This document shows, one piece after another, positions 4,886-62,409 of a stretch of 64,000 nt of DNA. The stretch lies in sequence record OR067838.1. One strand, given 5' to 3'. The stretch comes from Escherichia phage KKP 3954. How positions within the stretch are numbered: position 1 is the stretch's first letter; each line of letters starts with the position of its first letter. A program made the position numbers and the translations under genes. The notes beneath the pieces were generated by a model that did not search any database, was not told the DNA's origin, and saw only the letters and a list, made by a program, of their open reading frames with translations.

Positions 4886-5077
4886 GAATCCGTATCTATA
4901 TAATTGATGAAGACATTGGTGTCCGTTATGATGACGAAAAACGATTCGCACCGATGGGAGGCATATACCCCCAAGTGTTCTAGCAGTTTGTCGTGATTGT
5001 TATATTTATGAAGGTTGTCGTAACTTCCGTAAATTCGAACTCCTTGCAGATATTGACTTCAATGAGGAGGAGGAGTA

Positions 5078-5251
5078 ATGAAAATATTACGAGTGAATAT
5101 TGAAACTGCTTGGTGTGGATGTAATGAGGTTGTGGATATCGAAATTGAAGATGATATGTCTCAAGAGGATATAGAAGATCTTGCGCACGAAACCTTTCAG
5201 GACTATTGTAATTACGGGTTCCATATTTTAGAGGAGGAAGAGGATGTTTAA
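5078..5251 (+). CDS. small acidic protein (57 aa; below ORF-track length cutoff)
   Basis: ATG at 5078 preceded by GAGGAGGAGGAG RBS; ends at TAA 5249-5251, 4-nt overlap with next gene start. Confidence 0.4.
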   Translation: MKILRVNIETAWCGCNEVVDIEIEDDMSQEDIEDLAHETFQDYCNYGFHILEEEEDV

Positions 5252-5447
5252 CTACGATAACGATCCTAATATTATCCAGTTAACCCGACAAGAACTGATC
5301 ACAATCATTGAAGATGCTTTTATTGATGGCTGGAATACACAAGATAATGACTGGGGTGGACCTGAAGCTTTTCTAGAACATCATAAAGCGTATGGAGAAT
5401 TTTGCGAAACCACTGTAGCTCTTGATAATCTGAAGGAGGGTTTGTAA
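5244..5447 (+). CDS. small acidic hypothetical protein
   Basis: ORF track; GAGGAGGAAGAGG RBS upstream. Confidence 0.45.
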   Translation: MFNYDNDPNIIQLTRQELITIIEDAFIDGWNTQDNDWGGPEAFLEHHKAYGEFCETTVALDNLKEGL

Positions 5448-6282: not shown

Positions 6283-7079
6283 ATGTCCGAGAAAATCAGC
6301 CTGAAAAAACGTCAAGAAAACCTTGCTTTCTCTCTGAAAAAGAATAAGAACCTGAACGAAGGTAAGATTGTTCTTCGTGTAGCATGTGCTCTAGATATTT
6401 CTGGTAGTATGCATGGTCTATATACTCGTGGGGTAGTGAGTGATTTTGTAGGTAAACTGCTTCCTTTTGGTATGCTGTTCGACGATAATGAACAAATTGA
6501 CATGTGGGCCTTCAATACGAGTTCTCAAGAGCTTACTCCAGCAACAGCAGACGTTTACGATGACTACGTTGGTAAATGTATGCGTAATGTTCGTATCGGA
6601 GGTGGAACAAATTACGCCCCTGTAATGGCAGATATCTACGATGAGTATTTTGGCACTGTTACCAAATATGTTACCACTAAACAAGTGGTATACAAGAGGA
6701 GGCTCCAAAGAAAGGCTTCTTTAATCGTCTGCTTGGTAAAACTGAAACAGTATCGGTAGAGCGTGAAAAAGTTGTAGCTGTATCTGAACCAGGTGCTGAT
6801 GTTACTCCTGGCGTTGTATTCTTCCAGACAGACGGTGAGAATGGTGATCCTAGTGCTGTTCGTCGTCTTATTGAAGAGAATAAGAATAAGCCTATCTATT
6901 GGTTCATGGTTGGCGTTGGTAATGAGAAGTTCAGCTTCCTGAAAGAACTGGCAAATGCTTATGACAATGTTGGTTTTATTGGCATTAAAGATTTAGACTT
7001 GACAGATTCAGAGCTTTATGACAAACTCTTATCTGAAGAGTTCGGAGAGTGGGTTGTTAAAGTAGGTGCTAAAAAATGA
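6283..7079 (+). CDS. vWA domain protein with TerD-like N-terminal motif; reading frame broken near 6690-6710 (track ORF 6283..6759 continues in another frame to 7079)
   Basis: MIDAS motif DISGSM and GGGTNYAP in first frame; the vWA TDG segment (VVFFQTDGENGD) lies in the downstream frame, which has no start codon of its own until about 6907. Confidence 0.55.
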
Positions 7080-8192: not shown

Positions 8193-8210
8193 TAATTAAC
8201 AAATGATTTT

Positions 8211-8234
8211 GAGGGGGAGAAATCCCCCTCTTGC
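8211..8234 (+). terminator. GC-rich hairpin (GAGGGGGA-GAAA-TCCCCCTC) after TerD
   Basis: 8-bp perfect stem read directly; weak T-tract. Confidence 0.5.
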
Positions 8235-8291: not shown

Positions 8292-8813
8292 TTGCTGATA
8301 AAAAACTTTGTAACAGTTGCGTTACTATCCTTAACTGCTTTTACATTTACACCTGTTGTGGCGAAAGCCGAAGCTGCAAACGTAAAAACCGCTAAAGTAG
8401 TTCACAAATATACAAAGCAATATAATGATAAAATTCTATTAGCTTGTGCAATTTACGCAGAAGGTCGCGGTCTGGGTAAAAAGGGAATGAATGCCGTTGG
8501 GAATGTGGTAATCAATAGAAGAAATGATGCCTACTTTCCTAACACAGTCAGAGGAGTCTTGTTCCAGAAAGGGCAATTCTCATATGCGAAAACTTTTAAC
8601 GTAACAGAGAAAGATAAGTGGCAGGAAGCAAAAGCAATAGCGGAGCGTTTACTTTATTTAGAGAAACATTTTCCTGAATTGCGGTCTGTTTTAGATGTTA
8701 CTAAAGGTGCTCTATACTTCAAGAAGCGGAATATAAAGACACACTGGGAGCGTGATATGCGTCTTGTTTATCGAGATAAAGTGCATGGTTTCTATCTACC
8801 AAAGGGGAGTTAA
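8292..8813 (+). CDS. secreted cell wall hydrolase, SleB-like (Hydrolase_2) domain with N-terminal signal peptide; candidate endolysin
   Basis: Signal peptide then AIYAEGRG...VINRR...FQKGQFS, typical of SleB-type hydrolases; TTG start 7 nt after AAGGAGG. Confidence 0.6.
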   Translation: MLIKNFVTVALLSLTAFTFTPVVAKAEAANVKTAKVVHKYTKQYNDKILLACAIYAEGRGLGKKGMNAVGNVVINRRNDAYFPNTVRGVLFQKGQFSYAKTFNVTEKDKWQEAKAIAERLLYLEKHFPELRSVLDVTKGALYFKKRNIKTHWERDMRLVYRDKVHGFYLPKGS

Positions 8814-15261: not shown

Positions 15262-16056
15262 TTGAGCAAGTTGAACACACTTGATCAATATTACACTAAC
15301 CCCGCTTATGCGGGGTTCTTATGTGATAAGATCAAAGAAATTTTTGGAGAGGAAGCTAACTACGTAGAACCATCTGCGGGAGAAGGAGCTTTCTCTTCTT
15401 GTTTTAAAAACATAACTTCTTTTGATATTGACCCTAAGTTTGAAGATTGTATTGAGGCAGATTTTTTAGCTCAATCTGTTGAGTCTGTTGGTAGTGTAAC
15501 TGCTTTTGTCGGTAATCCTCCATTTGGAAAAAATGCTAGTCTTGCCATTAAATTCTTTAACCATTGTGCTGAAATGCTGGATAACGAAGGTGGTATTTGT
15601 TTTATCTTGCCTCGCACATTTCAAAAAATCTTTTTTGCACACAAACTAAATCCCCATATGCATCTTCTTTACGAAGAAGAATGTCCAAAAGGATCTTTTA
15701 TTCTTCATGGAGAACCTTGGGATGTTCCTTGTGTATTCCAGATATGGATTAAACGCAACGAGAAGCGTTCTCCCGTTGTTTTAGGAGAGAATCGACTATT
15801 CGTATTAGGTAACAGTAAAGACTACGATATAGCCGTTAGGAGAGCGGGAGCAAGTGCAGGTAAAGTGTTATCAGAAGAAGATTCTTTATCTGAAGCATCT
15901 ACCTATTTTTTAAAAGCCTTGACTTCTGATCTTAAAACGCGTATCATTGAGGCTTACCCGTTACTTAAAGCTGAAGCTAGTAAAACTGCGGGAGTAAGAA
16001 GTTTAAGTTTAAAAGAACTTCAGTGGGTTCTGGAGAACATTAGAAAGGAGGAATAG
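15262..16056 (+). CDS. DNA N6-adenine methyltransferase
   Basis: AdoMet motif EPSAGEGAF and catalytic NPPF motif; TTG start after AAGGAGG. Confidence 0.65.
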   Translation: MSKLNTLDQYYTNPAYAGFLCDKIKEIFGEEANYVEPSAGEGAFSSCFKNITSFDIDPKFEDCIEADFLAQSVESVGSVTAFVGNPPFGKNASLAIKFFNHCAEMLDNEGGICFILPRTFQKIFFAHKLNPHMHLLYEEECPKGSFILHGEPWDVPCVFQIWIKRNEKRSPVVLGENRLFVLGNSKDYDIAVRRAGASAGKVLSEEDSLSEASTYFLKALTSDLKTRIIEAYPLLKAEASKTAGVRSLSLKELQWVLENIRKEE

Positions 16057-28818: not shown

Positions 28819-29139
28819 CTACTGGAGAATACCTTGCATAGGGATTGGGTTTACCAATGTAGCATTAGGAGCATAATAATAACCGCTCAATACCCCATTC
28901 TGGAAATAACGCAGTTGGTTAAAAACCGTTTCATTTGTGCCTTGCGCCCAATCCAATGGACTTTTAAAGAAAAAGTTGTCAACAAGGGCTTTTCTCAGGG
29001 TTGGTATCAACCCTGATTCTGTTTCAATACTCTCTGTAGCACTTCCATTAATAACATCATGGAGTTGGTTAGACGAGAAAATAACCAGATCTACGCCCTG
29101 TTCAAGAGACGTTGCTGGATATGTTGGGAATGTTGCCAT
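28819..29139 (-). CDS. tailspike N-terminal domain (likely same gene as 26084..28801, separated by a -1 frame break)
   Basis: ATG with AAGGGG RBS; downstream ORF frame is open from 28862. Confidence 0.5.
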   Translation of the reverse strand: MATFPTYPATSLEQGVDLVIFSSNQLHDVINGSATESIETESGLIPTLRKALVDNFFFKSPLDWAQGTNETVFNQLRYFQNGVLSGYYYAPNATLVNPIPMQGILQ

Positions 29140-29142
29140 TAA

Positions 29143-29478
29143 TTACCCCTTATTCTGTATACGTTTAACTATGTCATCTAGCATCATTTGAATAGTAGCA
29201 TTCTTGAGGTCCATAATCTTTTCAATCTTTTGCTCAAGAGTGTTATTATTTGCCATTAATGTAGAGTTAATTTGATTTAGCATCTGGGTAAGTTCGGCTT
29301 TAGTTGCATAAGTTGATTCAACAAAGACCAACTTCTTCTCTAGCTCTCGACTTTTCTCCTCCATTTCCTCAAGATCAGAGCCGAATTTATCCATTTTTTG
29401 TTTGAAAAAGAACCAGATGACTCCGATTAAAGGGATGATTGCATCCTTTGCAAGTCCCCATGCTTCTTGAAATTCCAT
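29143..29478 (-). CDS. hypothetical protein with N-terminal TM helix and coiled coil
   Basis: ORF track; hydrophobic N-terminal segment IIPLIGVIWFFF. Confidence 0.45.
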   Translation of the reverse strand: MEFQEAWGLAKDAIIPLIGVIWFFFKQKMDKFGSDLEEMEEKSRELEKKLVFVESTYATKAELTQMLNQINSTLMANNNTLEQKIEKIMDLKNATIQMMLDDIVKRIQNKG

Positions 29479-38387: not shown

Positions 38388-39305
38388 TTACTCGGTAACG
38401 TCCACACTAATGTTTGCCATTGTCAAAACAGTAAGTGCAGGAATATTGCTCGAATCCAAAACAGGTAATGCATTTTGGGGATTAAGTTTTTTGTATAAAG
38501 CATACAACCCAAAACCACGTAACAACTCTCCAGCGTGGAAGCCAAAGAAGACTCCGTTATCACTATCTGGTCTAGGAGCGGAACTCCAACAGCCATTCAT
38601 AACATGATTAGGACCAAGAACAATATAATTTTCCTGAATAAGTTCAAAACAGCGGTCTGCTACTATTTTAATGTTAGGAATTTCTGAATCATACCCAGCC
38701 ATCCCCATTATAGCACATCCTGCCATAAAGAGCGCAGACATGTGACTTGTAAAGTCATCTACAGGTGCTGCCACTTCTCCGTTGGGATAAAATATTGTTG
38801 GTGTTCTTCCTTCGTTGTTGTCTTGGAACCACTTTAGATAGTTGATCCAGTTTTTACAAACTGTTAAAAGTTTTTCAGGAACTTCTGCCCCTCGTTGTTT
38901 CAGTTCGTATACTGTATGACACGCACAGAAGAATGCTCGTGCTTCATAACCATCCCAAGCTTTATCGTTCCAATGATACATTGTGAACTCATTCTTGTTT
39001 CCGTATTTATGAGCATCCCAACGATCCCAAACATAAGCTTGTGCCATTGGTCCAGGCATCACAGGGGCAAACTTATTATAAAACCACATTTGTGAATCAT
39101 ATAAAAAGTCTATACTGTTGTTCATACGAACCCAATCAATATCTCTCCCTTTAAAACAATATAAGGATGGGTATTGATAACCTGGGTAAGGAATACCACG
39201 CCAACCGTCATATAAGGCTGTGTTAGGATCACTGATATTGGAAAATGGAATGATTCCTGGAGTATAATTCAAACTGTTAAGTTTGTAGTCCAGTATTGTA
39301 TACAA
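38388..39305 (-). CDS. hypothetical protein (TTG start, no RBS; frame open upstream into 39269..41266)
   Basis: ORF track; 37-nt overlap with upstream gene. Confidence 0.45.
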   Translation of the reverse strand: MYTILDYKLNSLNYTPGIIPFSNISDPNTALYDGWRGIPYPGYQYPSLYCFKGRDIDWVRMNNSIDFLYDSQMWFYNKFAPVMPGPMAQAYVWDRWDAHKYGNKNEFTMYHWNDKAWDGYEARAFFCACHTVYELKQRGAEVPEKLLTVCKNWINYLKWFQDNNEGRTPTIFYPNGEVAAPVDDFTSHMSALFMAGCAIMGMAGYDSEIPNIKIVADRCFELIQENYIVLGPNHVMNGCWSSAPRPDSDNGVFFGFHAGELLRGFGLYALYKKLNPQNALPVLDSSNIPALTVLTMANISVDVTE

Positions 39306-44120: not shown

Positions 44121-44535
44121 TTACGCCTGATTAGGTTTGTTATCAATATAAACCAATACAAAACGTTTATCTCGACCTGTAGTTGTATACCCAGGACGAC
44201 CATTAATCTTAACTGTATCTACTATATACAATTGACCATCTGGCACACTTTCAAGATATTTATAAGGTTTAAGAAGATCTAAACCATTTGTAACTTTGAA
44301 ACTTATACTTGGATCATCTCCAGATAATCCTATCTGACATTGCCAAGACTCGTCCCTAGTGTTCCACCTTAAACGAATGTCATAATCAACTCCATCCAAT
44401 GTAACTGTATATGTTTGATCAGGTATACTCTTCAGTTTTCAGATACCATGCAAAATAAGTAGAATGGTCCTCCAGATAAACTGCACTGTAGCCTGTATTA
44501 CTTGTAGACCTTGTTGTTTTAGAATAAGTTGTCAC
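44121..44535 (-). CDS. hypothetical tail protein; track ORF 44121..44399 (TTG, no RBS) plus probable N-terminal extension from GTG 44535 (RBS GGAGG), joined by a +1 frame break at a T4 run
   Basis: GTG 6 nt after GGAGG; downstream frame open across junction; break at plus 44436-44439. Confidence 0.4.
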
Positions 44536-45365: not shown

Positions 45366-47355
45366 TTAACCACCAGTGTTAGATTGTCCACTTAGAGTTG
45401 AAAGAGACAAACGTTGGAAAATACTATTTCCGCTATTTTGAATTCTTGCATCAAGAATATTTCCAAACTCGGAAGAAGGGCTGATCGTAACTTTGATAAG
45501 ATCACTTGGTATTGCTACCGTATTCTCAACAACAGGTTGATTACGAGCCAAACTTACGTTAGGTGTATAGGCTGATTCACGTAAATCTTCAAGAGGATTA
45601 CCAAATCCAAAAGCACGTGTCCTTGTTTGTTCTCCTCTCCACATACGACCAATATCTTGTGTATCAATACCTGTTAAATTATACAACCAATCTGCTACAG
45701 GATTGCTGTCTCCACTTTGCGTTGCCTCGTATGCTTTTTGTGCCAAAGATTTATTAGGATCTGTGTTGTCTCCGAAGGTATCTGGGAATGTTTCTTTAAG
45801 CCAATTGGTAAAAGATCCGAAACCATCTCCTAATTCTTTAGCAAAACCACCAAGTTGAACTGTTGTTTTACCAAGTTCTTCACCTAAATCTTTGGCGAAC
45901 TGATCTAGCACTTTAACGTTATCCAACCAAGAATCATCTTTAGGTAAAGCTTTTACAAAACCTTCTAAGAAATGGTTCTGCATACCTTGACCTACAAGCT
46001 GAACTGTTGCAGCAAAACGAGTAAACTCTTTAGAAGCATCTATTTGTTCTTGAGTTAATGTTGCACCTGTTCTTTGAAGCATTTTCAATACTTCATTATA
46101 CCCTTCGCCGTTTTTACTAAACATACGTTGGTAGTGCATAAGGTCATCACCAAGGTTTTCAAGAAGTCGCCCGATTTGAGCGGAGTTCATACCTCGACGC
46201 TCACCTTCATTAACAGTAGCCTGAATAAAAGCTAAAGGATCGTTCTGTAAAGGTTTAAGCTGTTCTGGATTCCATCCAAACAAGTTCATAATGTCAGTTA
46301 TGCCATTATCACCGCCTTTCCACTTCCCTTCTTTCTCATTCCACTTTGCAGCTAAAACTGTATTACCAAGACGTTCACGAACGTCTTTAATATTATCTAT
46401 TGATTTAATAATATTTGCAGAGTCTACACCGTTCTGTTCACCCCAAGCTGTCATTGCCAAAATAGCGTTGGCGTTTGTCTGAACGTTTTCAGCACCACGG
46501 CTTACAAGTTTAATTCTTTCGTTAGTATTCATCAACGTGTTACCAACTACAGAACCACCTGCAAACAGCCCAGCACCTATTAAAGAGGATGCAATCATGC
46601 GTGGATTAAGACCTGCCGCACCTTCTTTTAATTGTCCATATCGACGATCACGATCACGTTTTTGTTGAGCTAATTCACGCTTACGGTTGCGTTCTATATC
46701 TCTAAGTTCACGATTTCGCATACGTATACGCATTTTAGCTTCTGCTTCTAACTCTCTACGAATACGGCGACGACCGCGAACCTCGTCTTCTATTTCAGCA
46801 TTCTTTTCACGATGCGATCTGCGTAAAGCATCCAACTGGTGAGCAAGAGCTTGGTTCATACGTTGAAGAGTTATTTCACCCTTTTTGTATTGCTCTACAG
46901 CTTTACCCATAACATCTCTAGCTTCTTGCATAGCGCCAGGACTGGCTTTACTAAATGCTCTTGCTCTGTAGTTAAAGTTCTGCAAACGAAGATTACCTAA
47001 GTCTTCCCTACGTGCTGCTGCTTTAGCTTCGCGTTCAGCAGCTTTACGAGCTTTTTTCTTCTTCTCTTCCTTGCGGGGTTTTAGGAGTTCTAGGTCTGCC
47101 AGATCCGCCTACAGGAGCACCCGCTCCAGCGGGAGTAGGTGCTCGCATAGGTTTTTGACTTTGAGTTTGAGCTTTCTTAAGTTCACGCTCAATCTCTTTC
47201 ATTTGTTGTCTAAACTTGGTCATGTTCATAGTGGGTTGCATTTTATTTGCAAACTTCTGAACACTCAACACGGCATCTTTTGCTTCCTTGAGACTGTTCT
47301 TGTCCACCTTAAACGTAACCACGTTACTAATTTTGGAGGCGTTAATTTCTAACAA
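45366..47355 (-). CDS. tail tape measure protein; two ORFs (47044..47355 and 45366..46985) joined by a +1 frame break at a 6-nt homopolymer
   Basis: TTG start after GAGGA; both parts K/R/E-rich helical; break at plus T6 47053-47058; removing one base fuses the frames. Confidence 0.55.
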
Positions 47356-47375: not shown

Positions 47376-48124
47376 TTAAACAAGTTTCTTAAACAAATCT
47401 GACATTTTATTTGTCTGGTTTTGATGTTTTCTCTTTATTGAAGTGTCTTTAACATACATGGCTTCAACATACTCTTCGTATGTTAAATACTCATATAGTT
47501 TTAAAAGATAATCTACACCGTAGTTATCCAATGTTTTCAGTGTTTCCGAGGTATCTTTAACGACTTTGCAAAGAATAACCTCATACCACTTCAAAGTAAG
47601 GGTTTTCGTTGCTGTGTCGATAGCATGTTCAATCGCAGGTGTTAATTTGCTGCTAAACTCGTCATCGCCTGAAGCTGTGTGAACAGTTTTCCGAAACCTC
47701 GTTTGAAAAAAGGGCCGTAGTTTACCTCCAGAACTTTAGCAGTAAGATCTAACACTAGTTCTGGGTGAGCCATAAATAATTCATCAAAATTTTCTGCAAC
47801 GTTATAACCGTCTTGAGTATAAACCTCATCTAAAATTTTACGCAAAAAGACAGTTAAATTCTTTTCTTCCAAACCTGCAAAAAGTTGGATCAGTGCCATA
47901 GCAATACGTGACTCAAGGTCTTCGTCTGCGGACATTGTTGCTGTGCTATACATAGTCATAGGAACAACCAGAACACTACCCAATTCTGGAATCCTGTCAA
48001 ACACTTTAGATGGACTCCACTTCATAATACGGAAAGTAACAGATCTGTTTCCATCTAACGGAATCTCAACTACTTCTTCTGGTCGAGCATATTTTTGAAT
48101 TGTGTTATCTTGTTCTTGTGACAT
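47376..48124 (-). CDS. tail assembly chaperone, long form produced by -1 ribosomal frameshift (G-T type)
   Basis: Slippery heptamer U UUU UUC on mRNA (plus 47705-47711); -1 frame open from there to stop at 47376; gene sits between tube and tape measure. Confidence 0.5.
47642..48124 (-). CDS. tail assembly chaperone, short form
   Basis: 160-aa ORF between tube and tape measure genes. Confidence 0.55.
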   Translation of the reverse strand: MSQEQDNTIQKYARPEEVVEIPLDGNRSVTFRIMKWSPSKVFDRIPELGSVLVVPMTMYSTATMSADEDLESRIAMALIQLFAGLEEKNLTVFLRKILDEVYTQDGYNVAENFDELFMAHPELVLDLTAKVLEVNYGPFFKRGFGKLFTQLQAMTSLAAN

Positions 48125-48661: not shown

Positions 48662-50072
48662 TTATTTTGATAACGGGGGGCTTAACCCCCGCCGTATTAG
48701 TTTGCAAGTACGGTTAGTCAGGACGTTGACCTGAACTTTAACGTAATGGAAGAAGCCAGCGTAAACATATTCAATCTTCATCCCATCAACCAGACGAGCA
48801 TTGATTTGCGCATCGGTCATATCGGCACGAGAAGGAATATAAACAATAGGTTTCAGATCGACACGCAAACCAGTCTCTTCAGAAGTAACAACTTCATTAG
48901 CGATGGAACCGTTGAGGATACCTACTTGGATCGGGTTAGCCAGAACAGCTTGTCGAATCAAAGCCAGACCGTTTGAAGTAGCACGAACACCACCACCCAG
49001 CATAGACTGTTGTTTAAACAGTGTAAACAGTGATTCTTCTGTGCGAGCTTTAAACCACAAAGCATGAACAACATAGTCAACAAAGAAACCGCTAACCATC
49101 AATCCATCACGATAGAACAGAGTTCCATGCTCTTTACGATAGATGTTACCGTTCTGTTGAACAATATTGTTTTCCGAAGTCTGATCCAGTTTCTCGATCT
49201 CTACTCCTACCAGTGTTTTACCGTGAAGGGTAGTTAAACCAGGTTGACGAGAACAGATTGCACCAACAACTGCTGCTTCTGGGAATACAGAATCTGCATC
49301 AGTCATCCACAAAGCAAAGCAAGTGTTATTATAACCGAGGTCATTCAGTCGTTCCAGAACGTTATCTTCTGCTTTCGTTTTAATTCCAGGTTCAGAGCTA
49401 GAGAAGAAGTAAACTTTATCATTCTCTTCTACCCATGCAGCCAAAGCTAGAACATCTTCTGTTTCATGGGAATCTGAAAGGGTCCAGAACCAGCTACTAT
49501 CAATATCATGCAGAGCAGCGATATCTTCCGTAATAGCATTAGCATAGACAGTTTCTTGAGTGAAACCTGTGCTGTCAATAGAACCAAACTTACCTTCTAC
49601 TGGAGTGAAAGTCATTGCAGCGCCGTTGTTAGCTACTGTAAACAGTGGGCCATAAACAAGATCTGCATTGATCATTTCAGTCAGACCAACTACAATCTCT
49701 TGTGCAGTTGCAGTGTCATCAGCAATGAATTTAAATTCTTTTTTCTTGGGTACCATTTTTGATGGTAATTGTGTAAGTTGCACTATCTTCTACGATTGGA
49801 GTTAGAGTAAAGTTTGTAACTTCACGCTTACCAACCATGACTTGATCTGGTGGGAACAAACCGTTAAACAGTTTGACTGCCATAATATACGCTGGATCAT
49901 TTAATCCATAACCTGCTTCCAAAAGTGCATCGGAAGAAGAGTAATATTGAATCGCTTCGCCAGTTACGTTCTGACCTGTAAGGATCAGAGGAATATCGAA
50001 CTGGGTTTCACGAATTGATGTAGCACCATACAGTAAAGTTACGGTTGCTACCTTTTCACGAAAAGTTGCCAT
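48662..50072 (-). CDS. tail sheath protein; two ORFs (49731..50072 and 48662..49783) joined by a +1 frame break at a 6-nt homopolymer
   Basis: AGGAG RBS before ATG 50072; break at plus T6 49739-49744; combined about 470 aa upstream of tube gene. Confidence 0.55.
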
Positions 50073-53973: not shown

Positions 53974-54117
53974 GGTTGCTGTTTTAACCAGGTTAACTTC
54001 ACGTATACACAGTGTCCAAGGTCAGAGCTAAACACTCCACCCAGAACCAGGTGTCCGAATTCCTGGCGAGAGTTAGATAAAGTAATTCCTTTAGCCATTT
54101 AATTTAATCTCCTAAGA

Positions 54118-55235: not shown

Positions 55236-55715
55236 TTAGTCCTTCTTGACTTTAACGCCCATTGCGCCTATACTCAAACCTTTAAGAACGCCGTCTTTAC
55301 GAGCTTGATATAATTCAGGGTCGTTGAATTGGATTTTAACGAGGGGAGTTCCTTCCACAACGAGTTCGTCACCAATGTAACAATCGACTTCATTTACCCA
55401 AGCTTTAATTGGAGAAAACTTATCGGTGTTCTTCATGTGACCAAGATTACCACTAATGTTGGTAATATTCTCATTGAAGTTGTCAACCATCTTCCTGATT
55501 TCCAAATCAGACATGCGCTCTCCGTGGAGATCGTCTTCTTCAGGTGGACAATACAAGACCTCAATAACCTGCATCTTTTCTTCATCAAATTTATTTTGTT
55601 TGACTAAAGTTTCAGGTTTTTGAGATGGTATAGAATCTTGTTGGGATTCAGAATTCTCTTTAAAACCAGCGAAGGTTTTGAAGAGTTCCCACAGTGTATC
55701 TTTATTGAGTTCCAT
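55236..55715 (-). CDS. hypothetical head protein
   Basis: ORF track. Confidence 0.4.
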   Translation of the reverse strand: MELNKDTLWELFKTFAGFKENSESQQDSIPSQKPETLVKQNKFDEEKMQVIEVLYCPPEEDDLHGERMSDLEIRKMVDNFNENITNISGNLGHMKNTDKFSPIKAWVNEVDCYIGDELVVEGTPLVKIQFNDPELYQARKDGVLKGLSIGAMGVKVKKD

Positions 55716-62190: not shown

Positions 62191-62278
62191 TGGTGGTGAG
62201 TGATGGAGTCGAACCACCCGAATCGCAATGATAACAGATTTACAGTCTGCCCCGCTACCCCTACGGAATTAACTCACC
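62191..62278 (-). tRNA. tRNA-Tyr (anticodon GTA), type II
   Basis: Anticodon arm GCAGA-CTGTAAA-TCTGT; discriminator A; CCA encoded. Confidence 0.65.
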
Positions 62279-62409
62279 TAAATACTAATATTTAAATTCT
62301 TTTTAAAATAGCCAGTGTTCGCACCACTAACTATGAGTTATCGGTAAGATGGTGGGGGGCTATCTTCCGAAAGTTTACTCTATTAAAGTAAGCTACATTA
62401 AAAAGAACT

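Follow-up and report, generated by a model that had tools for sequence, protein, structure and literature searches.

A sixth adenine that splits the tape measure gene in an assembly of Escherichia phage KKP 3954 is most probably a sequence error

The frame break that divides the tape measure gene in the window, the 64,000-nucleotide stretch of Escherichia phage KKP 3954 analysed here, is an artefact of the assembly and not a real biological feature. We consider it highly probable (roughly 0.93) that the sixth A in the run at the break is a base-calling or consensus error, in which the homopolymer was over-called, and that the phage itself has A5 and one 662-aa gene that is translated without recoding. 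One of the six bases at 47052..47057 would then be a spurious insertion that shifts the frame by +1, and the true gene would be a single 1989-nt ORF, translated conventionally, that starts with the TTG at 47355 and stops at 45366-45368. As to the technical cause, the error looks like one made by a long-read (nanopore-type) consensus on modified DNA. We infer this because errors of homopolymer length occur together with a palindromic motif at which G/A and C/T readings disagree.

The tape measure gene and its frame break

The window comes from a phAPEC8-like E. coli myovirus of Phapecoctavirus. The 2.4-kb stretch around the break is matched at 95-99% identity by 64 GenBank phage records, nearly all of them Escherichia phages of Phapecoctavirus. 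In phAPEC8 (NC_020079), the gene order runs from the tail sheath through the virion structural protein gp107, the tail assembly chaperone gp106, gp105 (a 72-aa ORF) and gp104 to the distal-tail and baseplate genes. The gp104 gene is 1989 nt long and encodes 662 aa, which RefSeq names ‘tail length tape measure protein’; the tape measure gene is likewise uninterrupted in AV126 and Ro121c4YLVW. The tail genes of the window lie on the minus strand, and its tape measure gene (45366..47355) is found between the tail assembly chaperone and the distal-tail and baseplate hub genes. The chaperone gene (47642..48124, minus strand), which is upstream, matches PHROG 3840 and Pfam Phage_TAC_15, and the genes downstream are Dit_like, Pam3_gp18 and E217_GP41.

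As written, the whole gene spans 1990 nt, or 1989 nt (662 aa) minus one A, and it is divided into two minus-strand ORFs that both begin with TTG, as the original prediction had described. The 5' part (47044..47355) encodes 103 aa and has a ribosome-binding site, GAGG, 8 nt before its TTG, which is the same start as annotated for phAPEC8 gp104. Its product ends in ...PQGREEEKSS, of which the last two residues, together with the stop, are out-of-frame artefacts. The 3' part (45366..47051) is in the +1 frame, and within it the mechanically called ORF (45366..46985) encodes 539 aa. No Shine-Dalgarno-like sequence was found upstream of its TTG at 46985, so the claim of a ribosome-binding site for the first ORF and none for the second holds. 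As also claimed, the frame of the second ORF stays open further upstream; it does so as far as 47108, and when read from 47054 it continues stop-free as KARKAAEREAK... The two frames thus overlap over 47047..47108.

The break itself occurs at the A6 run in the mRNA sense (47052..47057, minus strand). The corresponding T6 run on the plus strand had been predicted at 47053-47058; the run is present, but its coordinates are 47052-47057. At the break, the 0 frame of the mRNA reads GAA GAA GAA AAA AGC UCG UAA, and the continuing tape measure frame starts at GCU, which places the downstream frame at +1 with respect to the upstream one. In the -1 frame, a TAG follows soon after. Because the frame break is read directly off the written sequence, it is not a chance pattern, and the prediction of a +1 break at a 6-nt homopolymer is correct for the sequence as written. 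The gene as written does not read in a single frame, but it does once one A is deleted from GAAGAAGAAAAAAGC, which gives a single ORF of 1989 nt and 662 aa. This fusion by removal of one base had also been foreseen. We attribute the failure to read in a single frame to sequence error, not to biology.

Both pieces belong to one protein family, which bears out the tape measure label given to them. The 5' ORF matches PHROG 16051 (‘tail length tape measure protein’) over profile positions 1-106 (E=1e-46), and the C-terminal ORF matches it over positions 126-660 (E=0). The intact phAPEC8 gp104, the homologue that RefSeq names as a tape measure protein, covers positions 1-660, and positions 107-125 are exactly the stretch that is missing between the two ORFs. 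A Pfam search with the tape measure protein returned no matching model.

The corrected window gene shares its position, TTG start and 662-aa length with phAPEC8 gp104 (YP_007348530.1; PHROG 16051). In contrast to the window as written, which has the extra A at codon ~100, gp104 and the genes of all other relatives are unsplit. The corrected gene differs from that of phAPEC8 by 26 nt and 3 aa. Since these differences are mostly synonymous (23 of 26), including those downstream of the break (20 of 23), the whole tape measure frame is under purifying selection.

Run length in relatives and in a second assembly of the phage

The original prediction had proposed comparison with related phages as a check, and all relatives examined turn out to have A5 and an unbroken gene. 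In alignment, the A6 of the window stands against A5 in phAPEC8, AV126 and Ro121c4YLVW, with no other difference in the flanks. A query of 80 nt with the run at its centre gives 59 GenBank matches, each of which spans 79 nt and none of which has 100% identity. Another 20 loci, drawn from ENA, Logan and NCBI assemblies, have both the called 662-aa gene and A5 in every case. When the run was measured directly, it was A5 in 28/28 fetched loci (27 distinct DNA stretches). A metagenome pattern search for A5, or A5 plus any base, is matched by two contigs, both in the 35-nt form that corresponds to A5. Exact scans of IMG/VR contain neither the 36-mer (A6) nor the 35-mer (A5), so they are uninformative on run length. 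The exact 103-aa product, with an L or M start, has no record in the protein-position index, as would be expected if the truncated product occurs nowhere else. Across the sequences compared, A6 is private to the window assembly.

A separate assembly of the same phage provides a closer comparison. The window homologues of gp103 (233 aa) and gp112 (182 aa), the latter with a substitution private to the window, are found in only one sample of the protein-position index, Logan SRR24296944. Look-ups of the window lipoprotein (29143..29478) and endolysin (8292..8813) products found no record. The two Logan contigs, SRR24296944_31 (13,298 nt) and SRR24296944_36 (5,110 nt), share 99.93% and 99.98% identity with the window, respectively, compared to 98-99.4% for the best GenBank relatives. 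The comparison covers 18.4 kb, and the window sites at 28829, 6692 and 4967 discussed below lie outside it. Over this length, the contigs and the window differ only at the A run, at one CC/CCC beside a GTAC site (49750) and at five GTAC sites. No ordinary SNP was found over the 18.4 kb, and therefore the SRR24296944 contigs represent the same phage as the window.

In this assembly, contig SRR24296944_31 has an A5 run and an unbroken tape measure gene of 662 aa. The window gene minus one A is identical to it at 1989/1989 nt. Of the two readings offered in the original prediction, a homopolymer sequencing error is thus strongly supported by A5 in the relatives and in the separate assembly. Genuine slippage fares poorly, as the break is absent from all relatives and from the independent assembly of the same phage.

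Private indels and GTAC sites in the window assembly

The extra A is one of a larger set of changes that are specific to the window. We aligned the whole window with UP17 (LR746137) and phAPEC8 and mapped 74 phAPEC8 genes onto it. Compared with both phages, the window has twelve private indels, and a further 2-nt insertion, at 28829, is seen relative to UP17. Besides the +1 at 47057 in the tape measure gene, such indels break the genes for the head decoration protein (+2 at 54007), the tail protein gp097 (+2 at 39302), gp102 (+1 at 44424), gp088 (+2 at 28829), gp063 (+2 at 6692) and gp058 (-1 at 4967). The tail sheath gene (48697-50072, minus strand) is broken twice, by +1 at 49750 (GGTACC to GGTACCC) and by +1 at 48707 (GTACTG to GTACTTG), and yields the ORFs 49731..50072 and 48662..49783; the Logan contig has normal sheath sequence at 49750. 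Near its 3' end, the DNA polymerase gene lacks one base. In total, at least eight conserved genes besides the tape measure gene, one of them in the baseplate region, are broken by private indels. Because a lytic myovirus is not viable without its sheath, tape measure and baseplate-region proteins together, we regard these breaks, that at A6 among them, as assembly faults.

Two intergenic homopolymers are also longer by one base, C5 to C6 at 48680 and A4 to A5 at 1589. Intergenic hairpins that resemble terminators (48675-48695 and 8210-8225) have G/C homopolymer arm lengths that differ from those of relatives. In GGGGGTTAAGCCCCCC, the run at 48680 is C6 compared to C5 in relatives, and the C run at 8217 is C5 in the window compared to C6 in UP17. 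These changes in arm length at 48680 and 8217 are probably of the same error class.

The alignment also brought out features of other kinds. The block at 62200-62400, in the tRNA cluster, is genuinely diverged from relatives, and at 5244-5447 the gp060 homologue is shortened in frame by 195 nt relative to phAPEC8, which is likewise genuine divergence. The gene at 55236-55715 (minus strand) is homologous to phAPEC8 gp117, which RefSeq calls a ‘DNA methyltransferase’, and has a precomputed Pfam match to Peptidase_S78_2. Given this match and its position after the portal gene, the product is more likely a prohead protease than a methyltransferase.

Most of the private changes of the window, including most of the frame-breaking indels, fall on GTAC. 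This tetranucleotide occurs 26 times in the window compared to 229 expected from base composition, and 63 times in two UP17 loci together (55 + 8, with a 1-kb overlap counted). Across the phage group GTAC is about four-fold under-represented, and neither GATC nor TGCA is depleted. The group-wide depletion suggests that these phages have long been avoiding a restriction activity specific for GTAC.

At 28 sites where UP17 and phAPEC8 both have GTAC, the window does not; the number of private losses in either relative is zero. These sites read GTAT, ATAC, GTATAC or similar in the window. Among the 49 UP17 GTAC sites that align to the window, 17 read GTAT, six read ATAC and three read GTATAC. Examples of GTAC-site differences are those at 54003-54008, 49750, 48707-48711, 48415, 45681, 44423-44428, 39298-39303, 28829 and 6688-6693, and 2-nt GTATAC insertions disrupt the genes for the decoration protein, gp097 and gp063. 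Coding substitutions at these GTAC sites are nonsynonymous in 15 of 26 cases (58%), compared to 169 of 1168 (14%) elsewhere.

At five of these GTAC sites the Logan contigs offer other readings than the window, such as GTAC versus GTAT or GTATAC versus ATAC. Contig ends also directly abut GTAC sites (53823, 48708 and 35374), as would be produced by branching of the assembly graph at position 1 (G/A) and position 4 (C/T) of GTAC. The disagreements suggest strand-specific miscalls at a modified GTAC motif. Because the errors concentrate on GTAC and the two assemblies disagree almost solely there, they further suggest that the DNA of this phage stock carries a base modification at GTAC. We infer that GTATAC is the result of GTAT and ATAC being merged by the consensus step.

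Strand-specific base-calling errors induced by methylation have been described for nanopore data (Lohde et al., 2024, PMC11610573; PMC11610603). The window resembles these long-read errors in combining a private homopolymer indel with motif disagreements that are purine for purine and pyrimidine for pyrimidine and are symmetric under reverse complementation. The motifs differ, however, with GTAC (read GTAT or ATAC) in the window and RACG/CGTY, or minimally RA/TY, in PMC11610573. A caveat to this comparison is that the 2-nt GTATAC insertions are fitted to it by interpretation only and are not a documented type of long-read error.

Two other origins for the changes at GTAC were considered. Restriction cutting, fill-in and religation (G^TAC) could give GTATAC junctions, but we rejected this because the other assembly reads GTAT or ATAC at such sites, flanked on either side by genomic sequence. 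We set aside genuine selection of the lineage against GTAC in view of the frame-breaking insertions in essential genes; the excess of nonsynonymous changes noted above (58% versus 14%) also opposes it, as does the disagreement at these sites between two assemblies of one phage.

A literature search for Phapecoctavirus with GTAC and for SRR24296944 found nothing. The homologue of phAPEC8 gp078 (15262-16056, plus strand) is, according to an unconfirmed RefSeq annotation, a ‘putative DNA N6-adenine methyltransferase’; it has no Pfam-A match and no PDB sequence match, and these searches identified no gene that can be linked to the GTAC effect.

Recoding, genuine mutation and separate genes as alternatives

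Overall, we think it very unlikely that A6 is a genuine insertion mutation in this phage stock, whether as a fixed or a major variant, with full-length protein arising when tRNA-Lys slips by +1 on AAA-A, unprogrammed and at a low level, or when RNA polymerase slips on the A/T run. Such a mutant is chemically conceivable: AAA re-pairs perfectly one base on, GCU follows in the new frame and carries on the conserved protein, both frames are open over 47047..47108, and a few copies of the tape measure protein per virion suffice, so that a leaky mutant would not be absurd. It would also be formally possible should SRR24296944 and the window be sibling isolates. If true, it would be a natural case of an essential, low-copy structural gene that tolerates a frameshift. 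However, the other assembly of the same phage has A5 with zero ordinary SNPs over 18.4 kb, and were A6 genuine, a frameshift in an essential gene would be the sole true difference between assemblies that otherwise agree. The genes for the sheath, decoration and baseplate-region proteins are also broken in the window, which points to a fault of the assembly and not of the phage. Sheath-type proteins are required in large copy numbers, and leaky slippage could not supply them. Moreover, the site has no stimulatory element: the A-site codon is AGC, the 0-frame stop comes two codons on, and the run is just 6 bases long.

A programmed event at the same site, either a +1 frameshift or transcriptional slippage giving the 103-aa product plus a full-length fusion, as in dual-product phage tail genes, is less probable still, to the point that we give it hardly any weight. 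The local sequence, with a homopolymer at the junction and overlapping open frames, is all that speaks for it; against it, the break is absent from the 59 GenBank records, the two metagenome contigs and the 27 directly measured loci, and the exact 103-aa product lacks any record in the protein-position index. Because the site exists in one assembly only, A6 carries no evolved recoding signal. The programmed +1 shift of E. coli prfB (RF2) is conserved among bacteria and has an A-site stop codon in frame and, 3 nt upstream, a Shine-Dalgarno sequence. A prfB-like shift by re-pairing of the P-site tRNA from AAA to AAA is formally possible at A6. Unlike in prfB, though, AGC occupies the A site, the stop follows two codons later and no relative has the break, leaving neither conservation in homologues nor a stop or slow codon in the A site. 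Efficient transcriptional slippage is generally reported for A/T runs of ~8-9 bases or more, and the run here has six. The idea of two truly separate genes, a small K/R/E-rich protein and a shorter tape measure protein whose start codon is the TTG at 46985, strikes us as similarly far-fetched. TTG does begin both ORFs, but the one at 46985 has no ribosome-binding site, profile positions 107-125 of PHROG 16051 are lost exactly between the ORFs in a family profile that spans the junction, and all homologues are single 662-aa proteins. An over-called A in a gene that is intact in the phage remains our preferred reading.

A different site in the window has features expected of genuine recoding. 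The chaperone gene contains a slippery heptamer, T TTT TTC, at 47711..47705 (CCT TTT TTC in the 0 frame). The -1 frame, open from 47735, extends across the 72-aa ‘hypothetical’ ORF (47376..47594); GenBank records annotate this ORF and the chaperone separately. The heptamer is identical in 29/29 covering fetched loci (28 distinct), including contigs that are ~94% identical to the window. The programmed -1 frameshift of tail assembly chaperones, as in lambda G/GT, is reportedly conserved. In that system recoding takes place just upstream of the tape measure gene, and the counterpart of this position in the window is 47705-47711, not the A6 site. The A6 site, by comparison, is inside the tape measure gene, needs a +1 shift, has no slippery heptamer in register and is unconserved. 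Location in the chaperone gene, an X XXY YYZ motif and an open -1 frame are all found at 47705-47711, whereas the A6 site lacks this combination. On these features, 47705-47711 is a likely candidate for a genuine programmed -1 frameshift in the tail assembly chaperone.

For annotation, the finding means that this assembly is unsuited to inferring pseudogenes, split genes or recoding, with at least nine conserved genes broken in 64 kb. The by-product of the analysis, the behaviour of GTAC sites, may outweigh the frame break itself in value. For the biology of the phage there is little consequence: the tape measure gene is an ordinary, intact gene of 662 aa, as in every other Phapecoctavirus.
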